From Pirellulales bacterium (GTDB lineage Bacteria > Planctomycetota > Planctomycetia > Pirellulales > JAEUIK01): a stretch of 64,000 nucleotides of DNA. The translations under genes and the position numbers were made by a program. Shown piece by piece: positions 1,736-47,017 of the stretch (position 1 is the stretch's first letter; each line of letters opens with the position of its first letter). The notes under the pieces were generated by a model. That model was not told the DNA's origin and did no database searches. It saw only the letters and a program-made list of their open reading frames with translations. The stretch is taken from the NCBI GenBank assembly GCA_019636335.1, contig JAHBXR010000005.1, forward strand, positions 160,197-224,196, written 5' to 3'.

Positions 1736-2974
1736 CTAATTGGGAGAACCCAACGTCTCGAGCGGTCCGATTGTCACGGTTGTCGTCTTCGACAACGGAT
1801 ACGCCTTGAGCAAGGCATGCACGTCGTCGAGCGTGACAGCGGCCACGGCTTCGATGTCGTCGAGCACGGTTCGATGCTCGCGACGCTGCACCCAATTCGA
1901 GCCCACGGTGAAGAGCCGGCCCCGCGGACGTTCGCTGCCCAGCACGACGCGCGAGCTCGTCTTACGTTTGGCTTGCTCCAATTCGGCCACAGTGAACCCG
2001 TCGCGATCGATGCGGCGAAACAGCTCGGCCATCTGGCGTAGATTCACTTCGGCCCGCTCCGGATCGCAACTCATGTACGACAGAAACGCCCCCACGTCCT
2101 GGTAATCGTAGTGGCTCAGGCTGGCTTGTTCGGCGAGCCCCGGATCGACGAACTCCCAGAACAAGCGGCTGCCCGAGTCATCTCCCACCATCACCGCCAG
2201 CAGCTTGGCGGCAAAGCGTTGGGCGTCGATGGCCGCGGGGGCAGGGGACATCGAGAGCGTGTATTGCTGCGTCGAAGAGGGCTTGTGAAACACGTGAAAC
2301 GACGGCGAGGGGGAGACGCTCACGTTGGGTCGGTCGGCGCTGACGTCCTGCCAGCCGCCGCACAGGCGATCGGCCGTGGCGATAAATTCGTCGAAGTCGA
2401 TCCGCCCCGCTCCGACCAGGACGATATTGTGCGGGCTGTAGCGGCGCTCGAAATAAGCTCGCATCGACTCGACCGACAAGTCGGTAATGCTGCCGACCGT
2501 GCCCAACACGCTACGTCCCAAGGGGTGCTTGCCGAAGTAGACCGCCTTGCACTTGTCGTCGGCCCCGAAGGGGGGCTGATCGTCGTACATGCGTATTTCT
2601 TCGATGATCACCTGCTTCTCGGTGTCGAAGTCGTCCTTGCGCAGCGAGGGGCGCAGCATATCGGCCAGCAGCGAGACGGCGTCGGTCTGATGCTCGGGCA
2701 GCACGGCCGCGTAGTAGACCGTGGCCTCTTCGCTGGTGAAGGCGTTGTAGTGCGCCCCCATTTCGTCGAACTCGCGATTCACGTCGTCGGCCGAGCGCGT
2801 GGGCGTTCCCTTGAACATCATATGTTCGAGAAAGTGGCTCACGCCGGCCACGTCGTCGGACTCGTCGCGAGCGCCCGCGCGGACGAAAAAGCCGAGCGCC
2901 GTCGAGTAGGCGTCGCCACTGACCTCGGCCACGACTTCCAGCCCGTTGGCCAGCTTGTGCTTAAGAAACTCCAA
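1736..2974 (-). CDS. M16 (pitrilysin/insulinase) family zinc peptidase, catalytic subunit
   Basis: ORF 1736..2974 with a TTG start and GGAGG 6 nt upstream. Intact HxxEH zinc motif (GVSHFLEHMMFKGT). Overlaps the upstream M16 paralog by 14 bp. Confidence 0.9.
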   Translation of the reverse strand: MEFLKHKLANGLEVVAEVSGDAYSTALGFFVRAGARDESDDVAGVSHFLEHMMFKGTPTRSADDVNREFDEMGAHYNAFTSEEATVYYAAVLPEHQTDAVSLLADMLRPSLRKDDFDTEKQVIIEEIRMYDDQPPFGADDKCKAVYFGKHPLGRSVLGTVGSITDLSVESMRAYFERRYSPHNIVLVGAGRIDFDEFIATADRLCGGWQDVSADRPNVSVSPSPSFHVFHKPSSTQQYTLSMSPAPAAIDAQRFAAKLLAVMVGDDSGSRLFWEFVDPGLAEQASLSHYDYQDVGAFLSYMSCDPERAEVNLRQMAELFRRIDRDGFTVAELEQAKRKTSSRVVLGSERPRGRLFTVGSNWVQRREHRTVLDDIEAVAAVTLDDVHALLKAYPLSKTTTVTIGPLETLGSPN

Positions 2975-4205
2975 CGTTGACCTCCAGCGGCTGTGGCCCC
3001 AACGTCACCACGGTGAAGTTGCCCGGCGGGTGCTCGGCAAGATAGGCATTGATGGTTTCGCAGGTCAGCCCGTCGACCAGCTTCCCGACTTCCTCGATCG
3101 ATCGAGCGCGCTCGAGGTGGTACCAGTCGCGAGCTAGCGAGGCGGCCCGGGCCGAGCTCGATTCCTGCTGCATGATGAGCGAGCTCTTGATGCGTGCCTT
3201 GAGCCGCATCAACTCCGAGGGGAGGATTCCCTGCGACAACCTCACCAACTCGCCCAGCAGCACGTCGAGGGTTTCTTGCGCGCGTTCGGCACTGGTGCCG
3301 GCGTACGACAAGACGCTCCCCCAGTCGCGCAACGTGTGATACGAGGCGTAAATGCTGTAGCACAGGCCGCGTTTCTCGCGGACTTCCGTAAAGAGGCGGC
3401 TGCTCATCCCGCCGCTCAGGGCCCCGACGGCCGCCCAGGCACGGAAGTAGTCCGCATCGCGGTAGGGCACGCTGGGATAGGCCACGCCAATTTGCGTCTG
3501 GTTGGCCTCGTGCGGCAAATGCTCGATGACGCGCGATTCCTCCGCCGTGGTGATGATCGGCGTCTCCTGGCGTTTCCAATCGCCGAACAACCGTTCGACG
3601 TCGCGGCGCAGCGCATCCCAATCGAACCGGCCGGCCACCCCCAGAATGGCGCCGTTCGGGCGCAGCAGTTGTGAGAAATGCCGCTGCACGTCGGCGATGG
3701 TCGATACTTCCAGCCCGGCTCGATCCCCCAGGCTTGGTTTGCCCCAGGGATGCGGATAGCGCCGCCGGCGCAGCTCGAGCATCACCTTCTGCTGCGGCTC
3801 GTCCTCGATCGCGTCGAGTTCTTGCAAGACCACCTGCCGGGCGGCCTCGAACTGATCGGCCGCCAGGTGGGGTCGCCGGACGATGTCGGCATAGATCGAC
3901 AGCGTCTCGGGCAGGCTGCTCGCGAGGGTCGCGCCGCCGAAGCTGATATGAACGTCCGAGACCCCTTCGCTCCGCTCGACCCCCAGGTTGTCGAGCGCCT
4001 CGATCATCTGGCGACTATCGCGCGGCCCGGCGCCGCGCGTGAGCATCTCGCTGGTGAGGGTGGCCAGGCCGGCGTGGCCGGGTGCGTCGTGAACGCAGCC
4101 AGCCGGCACCATCAGTGCAAAGGCGGCCGATTCCAGCCAATTCATCGGCTCGGCGACGAGCACCAGGCCGTTCTCGAACGTGTGCGAACGAATAGACGGG
4201 CTCAC
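2961..4205 (-). CDS. M16 family peptidase-like protein, probably the non-catalytic partner
   Basis: ORF 2961..4205 with a GTG start. M16 fold (FENGLVLVAEP..., two-domain length), but the HxxEH position reads TLTSEM. Translationally coupled to the downstream M16 gene. Confidence 0.88.
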   Translation of the reverse strand: MSPSIRSHTFENGLVLVAEPMNWLESAAFALMVPAGCVHDAPGHAGLATLTSEMLTRGAGPRDSRQMIEALDNLGVERSEGVSDVHISFGGATLASSLPETLSIYADIVRRPHLAADQFEAARQVVLQELDAIEDEPQQKVMLELRRRRYPHPWGKPSLGDRAGLEVSTIADVQRHFSQLLRPNGAILGVAGRFDWDALRRDVERLFGDWKRQETPIITTAEESRVIEHLPHEANQTQIGVAYPSVPYRDADYFRAWAAVGALSGGMSSRLFTEVREKRGLCYSIYASYHTLRDWGSVLSYAGTSAERAQETLDVLLGELVRLSQGILPSELMRLKARIKSSLIMQQESSSARAASLARDWYHLERARSIEEVGKLVDGLTCETINAYLAEHPPGNFTVVTLGPQPLEVNVGVS

Positions 4206-43744: not shown

Positions 43745-44848
43745 ATGGTTTCGACGACGTTTCATCAGGAACATCCCACGCTCACGCTCGAGGGACAGCC
43801 GGCCGAACGCTGTCCCGATGAGCTGCTCGAGAGCTACTCGGCCATTGTCGACGAACAACGGCTGAGCTGGACGGTTCACCACCGTCTGATTCGTCGCTTG
43901 GGGGCCGGCGGACAGGGGGTGGTCTATCTCAGCGAGCGGCGCGGAACGGATCAGTTCACGCTGCCCGTGGCGCTGAAGATCTTTTCACCCCAGCGTTACC
44001 CGGACGCGCGCACCTACGAAGAAGCGATGGCCCGCATCGCCGACGTCGCCGCGCGCGTGGCGCTGGTGCAGCAGGATCACCTGCTTGACGTCCACAACTT
44101 CGTCGACCGCAATCGCATCCGCATGATGGAGATGGAGTGGGTCGACGGCTACGACCTGAGCCGCCTGCTGACGCCGACGATGCTCGAGCACGTGCGTCAC
44201 CGCGTGAGCAACCGGCGCTGGGAATACCTGAACAACGTCATCGTGACGGCGGGGCCGGTACAGCCGAGATTGAAGCCCGGCATCGCCATCGCCGTGATTC
44301 GCGATTGCCTGGCGGCGCTGGCGGCCCTGCATCGCGAGGGGATCGCGCACGGCGATCTGAAGACGTCGAACATCATGCTCAAGCGCACCGGCAGTGCGAA
44401 GATCATCGACATCGGTTCGGCGTTCGACATGGACAACGCGCCGCAGCGACGCACCTGCACGCCGAACTACACGGCGCCGGAGATTCTCGAAGGGGGCGAT
44501 TACTCGCCCCGCGCCGATCTGGCCAGCCTGGGCTACGTGCTGGTCGAGATGCTGGCCGGCGCGCCGCTGTTCACGCATTGCACGAATTTTCGCGAGCTGC
44601 TCGAGGCGAAGCGCCTGCTCGTGCAACGCTTGCCCGAGATTCTGCCGTACGAGGTCGTCTGCAACGAGTTGCTGATGAACTTCTGCCGTTGCCTGATCGC
44701 TCCCGATCCGATGCGCCGCTTTCCCAATGCCGAAGCGGCCGACCTGGTGAAGGAAGGCGCGGCGAGCTTCCACCGCCAACTGGTGAAGGGGGATCTCGCC
44801 AGCGAATACGACAACGAAATCCGACTCTGGCTCGAAGAGTTGGAGTAA
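43745..44848 (+). CDS. Ser/Thr protein kinase (Hanks type, non-RD)
   Basis: The track ORF starts at TTG 43715; I prefer ATG 43745. Motifs: G-loop LGAGGQGVVY, VALKIF, catalytic loop IAHGDLKTSNIML, DIGSAF, TAPE. Confidence 0.85.
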   Translation: MVSTTFHQEHPTLTLEGQPAERCPDELLESYSAIVDEQRLSWTVHHRLIRRLGAGGQGVVYLSERRGTDQFTLPVALKIFSPQRYPDARTYEEAMARIADVAARVALVQQDHLLDVHNFVDRNRIRMMEMEWVDGYDLSRLLTPTMLEHVRHRVSNRRWEYLNNVIVTAGPVQPRLKPGIAIAVIRDCLAALAALHREGIAHGDLKTSNIMLKRTGSAKIIDIGSAFDMDNAPQRRTCTPNYTAPEILEGGDYSPRADLASLGYVLVEMLAGAPLFTHCTNFRELLEAKRLLVQRLPEILPYEVVCNELLMNFCRCLIAPDPMRRFPNAEAADLVKEGAASFHRQLVKGDLASEYDNEIRLWLEELE

Positions 44849-44916
44849 GCACGCCTGGAACGATGCCGAACGGATGCGGCCCGCCTGCAAGGTCACCCCC
44901 CTCAGGGAATGCTGCC

Positions 44917-46041
44917 ATGTTGTCGCGTCGCTCGATGGGGTTGTTGGTCTGGTCGTTGCTCGCCCTCGCAGAAGGTCTACTTGCGAGTACGGTGTTCGCG
45001 GCCGAACCGACATCGCCGCCGTTCTATCCCGACAAGACCCGTCTGCTGGTTTGGCGCGACGCGCAGGGGAAAGAACATCCGATCTCGTCCGTGGCGGACT
45101 GGCAGATTCGCCGCGCGCACATCCGCGCGAACATGGAGCTCGTGATGGGGACGCTGCCCGACGCGTCCCGAGCGGTCCCCCTCGACGTGCGTGTCGTCGA
45201 AACGATCGATAAGCCGGGCTATCGCCTGCGGAAGATCACCTTCGCGCCCGAAGCGGACGATCGTGTTCCCGCCTGGCTGCTCCTGCCGAACGATGACGCG
45301 TGGGAGCCGGGAGACAAGCCCGCCCGCAAGCCGGCGATTTTGTGCCTGCACCAAACAACTCGCCAAGGCAAGGATGAACCAGCAGGGCAGGGGGGGCTCT
45401 CGAACCTGCACTACGCGCAAGAATTGGCCGAACGAGGCTACGTCACGCTGGCCGTCGACTACCCGAACTTCGGCGAATATACGTTCGATCCCTACGCACG
45501 CGGTTACGCCAGCGCCACGATGAAAGGGATCTGGAATCATCGCCGCGCGATTGACTTGCTGCAGTCGCTCGACGAAGTCGATCCCGAGCGCCTCGGCGTG
45601 ATCGGGCATTCGCTCGGGGGCCACAACAGCATGTTCGTGGCCGCGTTCGACGAACGGATCAAGTGCATCGTCTCTTGCTGCGGCTTCTGCAGCTTCCGCC
45701 GTTACTACGATGGTGACCTCGCCGGCTGGAGCCACCAGGGGTACATGCCGCGCATCCGCGAGGTGTACCACACCGACCCGGCGCGCATGCCGTTCGACTT
45801 CACGGAAATCGTCGGGCTGTTGGCGCCGCGCGCGTTCCTGGCGGTCGCACCGGTGGAGGATGGCAACTTCGCGGTGGCAGGAGTCCGCGAGTGCATCGCG
45901 GCGGCCCAACCGGTCTACAAGCTGTATGAGGCCGAGGAGCGGCTCGCCGCCGACTATCCGCCAGGGGGGCACGACTTTCCGCCCGCCGCGCGCGAACGCG
46001 CTTACCGGTGGTTCGACAAACACCTGCAAGCGCCGCAATAA
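44917..46041 (+). CDS. Secreted alpha/beta hydrolase (dienelactone hydrolase / esterase-like)
   Basis: In-frame ATG 44917 inside track ORF 44137..46041; the upstream part of that ORF is a shadow of the kinase gene. Signal MLSRRSMGLLVWSLLALAEGLLAS. Nucleophile elbow GHSLGGHN. Confidence 0.8.
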   Translation: MLSRRSMGLLVWSLLALAEGLLASTVFAAEPTSPPFYPDKTRLLVWRDAQGKEHPISSVADWQIRRAHIRANMELVMGTLPDASRAVPLDVRVVETIDKPGYRLRKITFAPEADDRVPAWLLLPNDDAWEPGDKPARKPAILCLHQTTRQGKDEPAGQGGLSNLHYAQELAERGYVTLAVDYPNFGEYTFDPYARGYASATMKGIWNHRRAIDLLQSLDEVDPERLGVIGHSLGGHNSMFVAAFDERIKCIVSCCGFCSFRRYYDGDLAGWSHQGYMPRIREVYHTDPARMPFDFTEIVGLLAPRAFLAVAPVEDGNFAVAGVRECIAAAQPVYKLYEAEERLAADYPPGGHDFPPAARERAYRWFDKHLQAPQ

Positions 46042-46046
46042 CAGCA

Positions 46047-46368
46047 CGTAGGTCAGGTACGCCGTACCTGACAACGTTCGACGTAGCCAACTCGAACAAT
46101 TGTCAGGTACGGGGTAGCTGACAATGCCGGGTGCCACTGGCTCTGCCGAGTCGAGCAGCCGTATTCCAAGTCTGCAACGGCAGCCGCGCGCCAGGCTCGA
46201 CTCGAACGATCGAAGAACCTCCTCGCTTCAATTCACCAGACACTGGCAGAGCCCGTGGCACCCAGTGCCGAGCTCCGCTCGTCCGAAGAAATGTCAGGTA
46301 CGCCGTACCTGACAATGCTCGACGTCGCTAACTCGAATGATTGTCAGGTACGGCGTACCTGACCTACG
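46047..46368. repeat. Composite nested-palindrome element: four copies of a ~24-bp palindrome in two 74-78 bp modules, flanking a 167-bp core with its own long inverted repeat
   Basis: TGTCAGGTACGCCGTACCTGACAA-type palindromes at 46052-46072, 46101-46124 (1 arm mismatch), 46292-46315 and 46342-46364. 46047-46074 is the exact reverse complement of 46341-46368 (28 bp). Core arms 46129-46147 and 46245-46263 pair at 18 of 19 positions. Confidence 0.9.
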
Positions 46369-46372
46369 GAAG

Positions 46373-47017
46373 CTACATTTCGCCCTGCACGTAGGTTCGA
46401 TCGAAGCGTTCGATGAACGTCTGTCGATAGGCGTTGCCGGGATCGTGGAGCGCGCGGAAGAAGCGTTTCACCCCCGAGCGGAAATCGATATCGAGCGCCC
46501 AGGGATCGACCATCAACATGCCCTCGCGTTCGAGGAAGAGCCGATTGCCGAGCTTCTCGAACCCGCCATTCTTGACGTAGATGCCGTGGGCCAATCCGTT
46601 GCGGAACGAATCCCAGACCCACTTGGCGTACGATTCGGCGCCGGGGGGGGGCTTCAAAGCGCGCCCGCGCCAGGCGGGATCCATGAACGCGTTGACGAAG
46701 GTCAGAAACGCGTGCGCGTTCGTCGAGGACTCCGGCGTGAGGAAATGCCCCAGCGCCTCGGTGGTGCAAAGAAGGGCATTGCCCCAGATCAATAAGACCG
46801 AGGCCTCGCGCCGACCGCCATGCCGCGGCGCGTCGAGCTCGTCCATCAACACGGCCAACGGTTCCAGCACGACGAAAGCCAGGCGGCGCTCGAGATACTC
46901 GAGCCGGCCGTCGGACGAGAGCATGGCCAGGCGCGGCCGATCATAATCGACGAACAGACTCAACGGCTGCCCTTCGATCACGGCGCGAATGCCATGGTCT
47001 TCTGGTTGGTTCGACAT
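46373..47017 (-). CDS. Hypothetical protein with a HEPN-like Rx4H motif
   Basis: ORF 46373..47047 has a TTG start; I prefer ATG 47017 (MSNQPEDHG). No family recognised overall. Motif WDSFRNGLAHGIYV (RNGLAH at 46586-46603). Confidence 0.6.
   Translation of the reverse strand: MSNQPEDHGIRAVIEGQPLSLFVDYDRPRLAMLSSDGRLEYLERRLAFVVLEPLAVLMDELDAPRHGGRREASVLLIWGNALLCTTEALGHFLTPESSTNAHAFLTFVNAFMDPAWRGRALKPPPGAESYAKWVWDSFRNGLAHGIYVKNGGFEKLGNRLFLEREGMLMVDPWALDIDFRSGVKRFFRALHDPGNAYRQTFIERFDRTYVQGEM

Follow-up and report, generated by a model that had tools for sequence, protein, structure and literature searches.

A survey of repetitive extragenic palindromes (REPs) carrying a GTAG tag reports them in Planctomycetes, among others, and describes a predominance of HH (head-out) dimers as well as 'REPtrons' (Di Nocera, De Gregorio & Rocco 2013, PMC3733652). 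The survey includes the families GTAG-20 and GTAG-21 of Rhodopirellula baltica, and clusters in which dimers are tandemly repeated together with flanking DNA (PMC3733652). Clusters of REPINs (REP doublets forming hairpins) are described as well; they form when a REPIN is repeated in tandem or inserts beside one already in place (Bertels & Rainey 2011, PMC3116915). A further study describes the REP-associated tyrosine transposases (RAYTs) as typically single-copy and REPs as multiplying without the gene (PMC5581495). Here we consider a 322-bp element at positions 46047-46368 of a 64,000-nucleotide stretch of Pirellulales bacterium contig JAHBXR010000005.1; the whole stretch is called the window. 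The element is an ordinary REP/REPIN cluster, a selfish repeat of a well-known kind and not a new system, and annotation should label it as such; gene, small RNA and regulatory array would all be wrong labels. Very probably it consists of four copies of a GTAG-tagged REP that were moved by a RAYT encoded elsewhere.

The four palindromes follow the pattern GTCAGGTAC-NNN-GTACCTGAC (21 nt). The pattern is found without mismatch at 46052-46072, 46293-46313 and 46343-46363, and with one change in the stem (two differences in another count) at 46102-46122. These are four matches in the window against 0.01 expected from shuffled sequences. The initial annotation, made from the letters alone, had seen four copies, and the pattern match recovers all of them, with starts at 46052, 46102, 46293 and 46343. 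The 9-mer arm GTCAGGTAC occurs seven times, always inside the element (0.14 expected), and there are no occurrences elsewhere within the 64 kb, in line with the unaided read of the initial annotation. The end letters of the palindromes had to be corrected: the first copy is preceded by G, belonging to a GTAG tag at 46048-46051, and the last is followed by C, belonging to CTAC at 46364-46367, and not by T and A. This tag is the key to the identity of the element.

The repeat family and its associated transposase in other genomes

To collect loci with this REP, the GTDB representative genome of each species was scanned for exact matches to a pattern. The pattern had 18 bases, 596 Gb were searched, and loci were gathered with the TAC/GTA stem. 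At least 120 loci were obtained, and 115 of the 120 listed belong to Planctomycetota (Pirellulales, 'Planctomycetaceae', Thermoguttaceae, and Anatilimnocola sp. NA78). At least 44 loci come from a single metagenome-assembled genome (MAG), GFS_7658, and at least 18 from the MAG Zod_Metabat.393. The initial annotation had reasoned that many dispersed copies at gene ends would point to an ordinary REP/BIME family (BIME, bacterial interspersed mosaic element), and such copies are indeed found in related genomes. The five matches outside planctomycetes (L069, L076, L093, L106, L110) all lack the GTAG tag. Since about 17 chance matches are expected by our estimate, they are regarded as chance or unrelated sequences. 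A scan of viral contigs for the tagged REP gave no matches.

Across the listed loci, 199 copies were counted at two mismatches or fewer. Exactly one GTAG/CTAC head is present in 170 of them (85%), and headless copies are rare. Tag side and loop polarity go together: left tags occur with CCC or TCC, right tags with GGG or GGA. The family consensus, seen in 83 forward copies outside the window, is GTAG-GTCAGGTAC-CCC-GTACCTGAC. Forward-reverse, head-out doublets (GTAG-hairpin...hairpin-CTAC) are the most frequent arrangement, with 48 clusters and spacers of 12-97 nt, and not a single cluster has the reverse-forward order. The inner stem triplets differ from TAC/GTA in 45 copies, 28 of which are complementary on both sides, these proportions being biased by the TAC/GTA pattern used for collection. 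The compensatory variants are CAC/GTG (16 copies), TAT/ATA (9), CAT/ATG (2) and CAG/CTG (1), and heterodimers mixing stem variants occur.

The clusters are mostly extragenic (81 of the 88 that could be assessed, with genes called crudely as longest open reading frames, ORFs). Divergent gaps are depleted among them (7/81 compared to 81/429 in the background, p = 0.025). For singletons between co-directional ORFs, the median distance to the preceding stop codon is 22 nt, and their tag is on the coding strand in 16 of 20 cases (p = 0.012). Such features are characteristic of REPs, and the GTAG REP survey found a placement bias of the same kind (PMC3733652).

In a Thermoguttaceae MAG, the ORF at 2487-3038 (minus strand) of locus L020 matches the NCBIfam family NF047646, 'REP-associated tyrosine transposase', with 179 bits (cut-off 80, E 4e-53), and aligns over its full length with TnpA-REP of E. 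coli (PDB 4ER8, E 1e-35). The score against the Pfam family Y1_Tnp is 18.5 bits, under the cut-off of 23, and Pfam alone gave no RAYT name. There are 4218 homologues of this protein at E <= 1e-40, the best-scoring ones being nearly all 182-183 aa long. Four homologous genes from other genomes (L129-L132) are 75-80% identical, and two of these lie on the same megabase contigs as REP matches. In all five loci (L020, L129-L132) the REP or its compensatory variant is found on both sides of the RAYT gene. The stem at the four homologue loci is identical in one and is the variant GTCAGGCAC / GTGCCTGAC in three. The repeat therefore belongs to a REP/RAYT ('REPtron') system.

The family thus resembles the described GTAG REPs, HH dimers and REPINs in its short stem-loop with an unpaired 5' GTAG, in the head-out doublets, in the extragenic location after stop codons, in the compensatory variants and heterodimers, in the copies flanking a single RAYT gene, and in the tandem clusters of doublets with flanking DNA. 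The window element departs from it in two respects: its inner palindromes are untagged, and it has a GCC loop instead of CCC. Where they fall inside genes, the R. baltica families GTAG-20 and GTAG-21 code for other peptides, and they therefore appear to be different sequences. Neither the REP sequence GTAG-GTCAGGTAC-CCC-GTACCTGAC nor the clade of 183-aa RAYTs was found in the searchable literature. The REP is thus a new sequence family, but of a familiar kind, and a planctomycete, R. baltica, was already on record as a carrier of GTAG REPs.

The REP/BIME system of E. coli with TnpA-REP (RayT/YafM) shares with this family the end-to-end alignment of the transposase, the same GTAG tag, and mosaic clusters of alternating REPs at gene ends. 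BIMEs have defined Y and Z types of REP and named linker motifs, some of which bind IHF or gyrase. None of these types or motifs was seen here, with no test aimed at them. The stems also differ: here they are perfect 9-bp duplexes with 3-nt loops, whereas the E. coli REPs are bulged, imperfect palindromes.

The GTAG-GTCAGG[T/C]AC hairpin and the 183-aa RAYT are widespread and strikingly uniform in MAGs labelled as Pirellulales, Planctomycetaceae and Thermoguttaceae, and MAGs assigned to several families share the 21-nt REP without any change. To our knowledge, the biology of REPs has been worked out almost wholly in Proteobacteria. The planctomycete pair of REP and RAYT offers a test case for the long-term vertical persistence of REPIN-RAYT systems outside that phylum.

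Several contigs, L128, L001 and L013 among them, end at or within REPs. REPs appear to fragment planctomycete metagenome assemblies, and knowledge of the motif helps to judge contig ends and MAG fragmentation in Planctomycetota. On the chromosome of Anatilimnocola sp. NA78 (about 6.5287 Mb), locus L036 has four degenerate copies, CGTAGG-TCCAGGTACTCCGTACCTGAC-C, at 697-1080, spaced by 278, 42 and 42 nt in C/T-rich sequence. This may be a REP array that was amplified in tandem and is now decaying, or else a repeat inside a gene.

Architecture and origin of the cluster

The first REP (46047-46074, plus strand) has a C-GTAG head, a 9-bp stem, a GCC loop and an AA tail, and its head and stem match the family consensus. 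It is followed by a partly palindromic 29-nt spacer (46073-46101), in which the inverted repeat noted initially, GTTCGA (46076) and TCGAAC (46092), is present. The second palindrome (46102-46122) is reversed, as seen from its GGG loop; AATG replaces the CTAC head, and the stem has one mismatch (GTAGCTGAC). After the core of 170 bp (46123-46292), the third palindrome (46293-46313) is again forward, with a GCC loop and AAAT in place of the GTAG head, and is followed on the minus strand by TTTCTTCGGA. A 29-nt right spacer (46314-46342), a direct repeat of the left one, leads to the fourth REP (46341-46368, minus strand) with a TT tail, a 9-bp stem, a GGC loop and a CTAC-G head. The first and fourth REPs form the arms of a 28-nt terminal inverted repeat (TIR), and the claim that these outermost segments are perfect reverse complements holds (100% complementary).

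By loop polarity, a forward and a reverse palindrome stand on each side of the core, which makes a tandem of two head-out doublets. Each doublet consists of palindrome, 29-nt spacer and palindrome, with palindrome starts about 50 bp apart. The doublets at 46052-46122 and 46293-46363 form a 71-nt direct repeat with 89% identity, in agreement with the two modules described initially. The repeat spans exactly from stem edge to stem edge, excluding the tags. The spacers, taken from GAC to GTC, are identical at 23 of 29 positions in direct orientation and at 12 of 29 in ungapped inverted orientation; the earlier figure of 20/26 had been obtained with slightly different borders. The doublets are thus direct duplicates, and this points to duplication. 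Tandem arrangement of doublets with unrelated flanking DNA is the commonest higher-order arrangement of both GTAG REPs and REPINs, and insertion next to or into another copy is likewise described (PMC3733652, PMC3116915).

The 331-nt single strand is predicted to fold into one long hairpin, with -190 kcal/mol on the plus strand (z = -14) and -200 kcal/mol on the minus strand (z = -16). The element might therefore be viewed as a single composite mobile unit of 322 bp, in which the headed REPs serve as 28-bp TIRs around 266 bp of cargo (including the two headless palindromes and a doublet of the second hairpin repeat described below) and which a RAYT moves as a single hairpin. Such a unit would account for the GTAG tags being confined to the outermost copies, with none on the inner palindromes, and for the perfect complementarity of the terminal 28 nt; arrival in a single piece is also possible given that the gap is empty in close relatives. 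However, the large mirror fold arises solely from the near-palindromic nature of each doublet. The halves are direct repeats (23/29 in the spacers) and not mirror images (12/29), which speaks for duplication, and the spacers of head-out doublets elsewhere are 12-97 nt and not 266. Searches of the window, of 126 related loci and of metagenome contigs gave no further copy of core or spacers. We consider the composite unit improbable.

The initial annotation had suggested a miniature inverted-repeat transposable element (MITE) or a REP/BIME-like element. The REP part of this suggestion stands, as the repeat is dispersed in many Planctomycetota genomes, flanks RAYT genes and is absent at the junction in the closest relatives. 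A classical MITE, that is, a 322-bp unit in many copies, is not supported: there is no target-site duplication, and the core and spacers are unique in all sequence searched. The element is similar to MITEs in being small and non-coding, in having TIRs, in its presence/absence polymorphism and in a transposase supplied in trans, but it differs in the lack of target-site duplications and of whole-unit copies, and in being associated with a single-strand HUH/Y1 enzyme and not a DDE enzyme. With IS200/IS605 elements of the IS608 type it shares sub-terminal hairpins, recognition on single-stranded DNA by a Y1 HUH enzyme and insertion without duplication; unlike them, it has no transposase between its ends.

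We propose the following scheme. The repeat unit consists of a 5'-GTAG, a 9-bp stem with arms GTCAGGTAC and GTACCTGAC around a 3-nt loop, and an A-rich tail, usually arranged in head-out doublets. Being non-autonomous, it would be recognised, as a hairpin with its GTAG on single-stranded DNA, by a RAYT (HUH/Y1, IS200/IS605 type), and would insert without target-site duplication. A RAYT in the source genome may have spread the repeats, and the cluster would have entered a convergent gap whose length in the closest relatives is a mere 18-35 bp. The two doublets could have arisen by local duplication, or one doublet could have brought flanking DNA along when it inserted within or beside the other. 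Any effect on the host, such as protecting or ending the two converging transcripts, would be a by-product.

Enzymes of the IS200/IS605 type make no target-site duplications. The absence of one here, noted already in the initial annotation and confirmed by the flanks CAGCA and GAAG, therefore fits the REP/RAYT class. A 10-nt direct repeat, GCACGTAGGT, is present at 46044-46053, overlapping the head of the left REP, and at 46387-46396, inside the gene of a 214-aa protein. It was rejected as a target duplication: the right copy lies 19 nt past the end of the element, in coding sequence that is conserved in relatives free of the element. It may be due to chance or may hint at a preference for GTAGGT-like sequences.

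The headless inner copies could result if the near-identical palindromes slipped or recombined, an event that would give a middle copy spacer-type sequence on both sides; simple decay is another candidate explanation. A third, long-shot possibility is that the cluster records the chemistry of the RAYT itself: a headless doublet with 170 bp of foreign DNA (241 bp in total) would have been joined to a resident REPIN at its junction of tag and stem, the expected RAYT cut site. This would explain both the direct repeat running from stem edge to stem edge and the restriction of GTAG to the outermost copies. If so, REPIN/RAYT systems can take up and move neighbouring DNA as cargo, in this case the doublet of the second hairpin repeat, and the planctomycete family would be a good system for the study of cargo pick-up.

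Several observations weigh against the assignment to a RAYT-mobilised REP family. The inner palindromes (46102, 46293) have A/T-rich tails on either side and no GTAG. Only two adjacent copies of the doublet with its spacer are known from the window, related loci and metagenome contigs, and the spacer pattern CTGACAANGNTCGACGTNGCNAACTCGAANNATTGTCAG has no matches in JGI metagenome contigs. The same contigs contain no match to the REP of the window type, GTCAGGTACGCCGTACCTGACAA, which combines the GCC loop with the AA tail. The window has a single cluster of this REP within its 64 kb, and no significant RAYT or RAYT remnant was found in it (phmmer with every ORF of 80 aa or more, followed by tblastn). 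The gene-context statistics depend on the crude gene calls mentioned above, and mobilisation of the family by the RAYT is putative.

The convergent gap in relatives

The element starts 5 nt after the stop codon of a hydrolase gene (TAA, 46039-46041) and ends 4 nt before the stop codon of the converging gene (46373-46375), as described initially. The convergent pair is kept wherever a contig shows both neighbours. Comparison of this junction in relatives shows that the element is absent and that the gaps measure 18-235 bp from stop to stop, compared to 331 bp in the window. The closest relative, L127 (89% identity to the window in the 214-aa protein), has a gap of 18 bp; it is 31 bp in L133-L135 (82% identity in the hydrolase), 35 bp in L136 (79%, hydrolase), 46 bp in L121 (73%, 214-aa protein) and 88-235 bp in five more distant relatives, L122-L126 (69-70%, 214-aa protein). 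In none of these contigs spanning the junction (L121-L127, L133-L136) does the gap contain this REP. As the gaps of the relatives are empty or occupied differently, the 331-bp gap of the window is a lineage-specific insertion. Judging from the sequences, such differing occupancy of an orthologous site fits mobile repeats and not a conserved RNA or operator.

In another close relative, L128 (91% identity over the C-terminus), a variant REP, GGTAGGTCAGGCAGCCTCTGCCTGACAA, is found 33 nt past the same stop codon, at the contig end. This contig (L128 1-559, ENA ERZ27241312 k141_560785) ends inside the variant REP, and its first ~250 nt resemble an inverted copy of the next 250 nt, which is probably an assembly artefact.

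Quite different palindromic sequences occupy the gap in some of the more distant relatives. L122 (4646-4747), L123 (4646-4733) and L124 (3871-3965) have an inverted repeat made of CCAATAG repeats. L125 (4646-4880) has an inverted repeat of ~120 bp (GATCGAACGAAGAAT...ATTCTTCGTTCGATC) that is missing from the otherwise alignable gap of L126 (2275-2389). The convergent gap thus seems to be a recurrent landing site that tolerates or attracts hairpin-forming elements.

A bidirectional terminator or RNA-stabilising structure was among the suggestions of the initial annotation. Protection of RNA 3' ends from exonucleases has been described for some enterobacterial REPs. A cluster kept for a role at the RNA level could similarly act as a two-way barrier, ending or insulating the converging transcripts and shielding their 3' ends. 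The element does fill a convergent gap to within 5 nt of both stop codons, and its predicted hairpins are very stable on both strands; members of the family lie just past stop codons with an orientation bias, and other lineages hold unrelated palindromes in the same gap (L122-L125). There is also one match to a hairpin followed by a T-run on the minus strand (46314-46292, then TTTCTTCGGA). However, this is the only terminator-like match in 45500-47000, compared to 1.3 +/- 1.2 in shuffled sequences, and thus the count is not above the background. The hairpins of the usual head-out doublet are not followed by U runs, because the A/T tails face inward. The closest relatives do with a gap of 18-35 bp and no such hairpin, and the orientation bias is equally expected from strand-specific insertion. 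Retention for an RNA-level role is therefore unlikely, if less so than a composite mobile unit. A plausible effect on the transcripts, given that the cluster abuts both stop codons, would be compatible with the REP reading as a secondary effect, and is not an alternative origin.

The initial annotation had also suggested a structured small RNA, or four operator sites for a dimeric DNA-binding protein. In the operator reading, a regulator would bind the double-stranded palindromes and act on the neighbouring genes. The four near-identical palindromes, their regular spacing (~50 bp within a doublet) and the strong predicted fold are what such a reading has to offer. On the other hand, the whole window has no match in Rfam 15 at the gathering threshold, relatives retaining the two genes lack the element at this junction, and a promoter-like site was looked for and not found. 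The same palindrome occurs at more than 100 unrelated loci downstream of unrelated genes, at 3' ends and not at promoters. Nothing was found in support of an operator array, and both variants of this reading are very improbable, the least probable of all those considered.

In a permissive Rfam scan, the doublets at 46055-46119 and 46296-46360 scored 27-38 bits on both strands against mir-8, an animal microRNA family whose gathering threshold is 47. A mir-8 identity was rejected, the matches being below the threshold, on both strands, and an artefact of perfect hairpins. Perfect bacterial hairpins can thus mimic miRNA precursors in permissive scans.

The upstream neighbour (44917-46041, plus strand) is an alpha/beta-fold hydrolase of 374 aa as annotated, with matches to the Pfam families GCE_fung, Peptidase_S9 and Abhydrolase_1. 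It is identical over the 299 aa queried to P0151 (374 aa; NCBI 'MAG: alpha/beta fold hydrolase [Pirellulales bacterium]'), and the start at 44917 is deduced from the length of the latter. The mechanical ORF, 44137-46041, is 634 aa long. Its first 260 codons are probably untranslated, given the length of P0151 (374 aa) and of the homologues (290-400 aa). The converging gene (46373-47017, minus strand) encodes a conserved 214-aa protein of unknown function with no Pfam family and 30 homologues, the full-length ones being 58-89% identical. Both genes belong to a conserved block of a 2-hydroxyacid dehydrogenase, a kinase, the hydrolase, the 214-aa protein and an aldolase (aldolase_II).

The core and the second hairpin repeat

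The core is unique except for the arms of its inverted repeat: BLAST against the window and 126 other loci gave nothing beyond the core itself. It was tried as a decayed third doublet or spacer, and this is not supported (local alignment score 17, compared to 15.2 +/- 2.2 for shuffles). The long inverted repeat reported initially, 46129-46147 with 46245-46263, is confirmed with 18 of 19 positions.

The arms of this inverted repeat are copies of a second, unrelated hairpin repeat with the approximate consensus GT-GCCACTGGC-TCT-GCCAGTGC, and the element is therefore a mosaic of two repeat families. The left copy (46129-46147, plus strand) reads GGGT-GCCACTGGC-TCT-GCC... and has a degenerate 3' arm. 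Its inverted partner (46241-46263, minus strand) is almost intact and reads GGGT-GCCACGGGC-TCT-GCCAGTG.

No GTAG tag and no Rfam match were found for the second hairpin repeat, and it may be a separate REP-like family with a mobilising enzyme of its own. It recurs in at least seven other planctomycete loci. L005 has two copies (401-484), as a 61-nt tandem unit, and L104 (1078-1151) has one inverted pair, similar to that in the window. Singletons also occur, and further loci with the repeat are L107 (3101-3125), L071 (2199-2225), L078 (2407-2430), L033 (253-277) and L051. In L033 and L078 it lies directly beside REP doublets. Two exact matches were observed in IMG/VR contigs.

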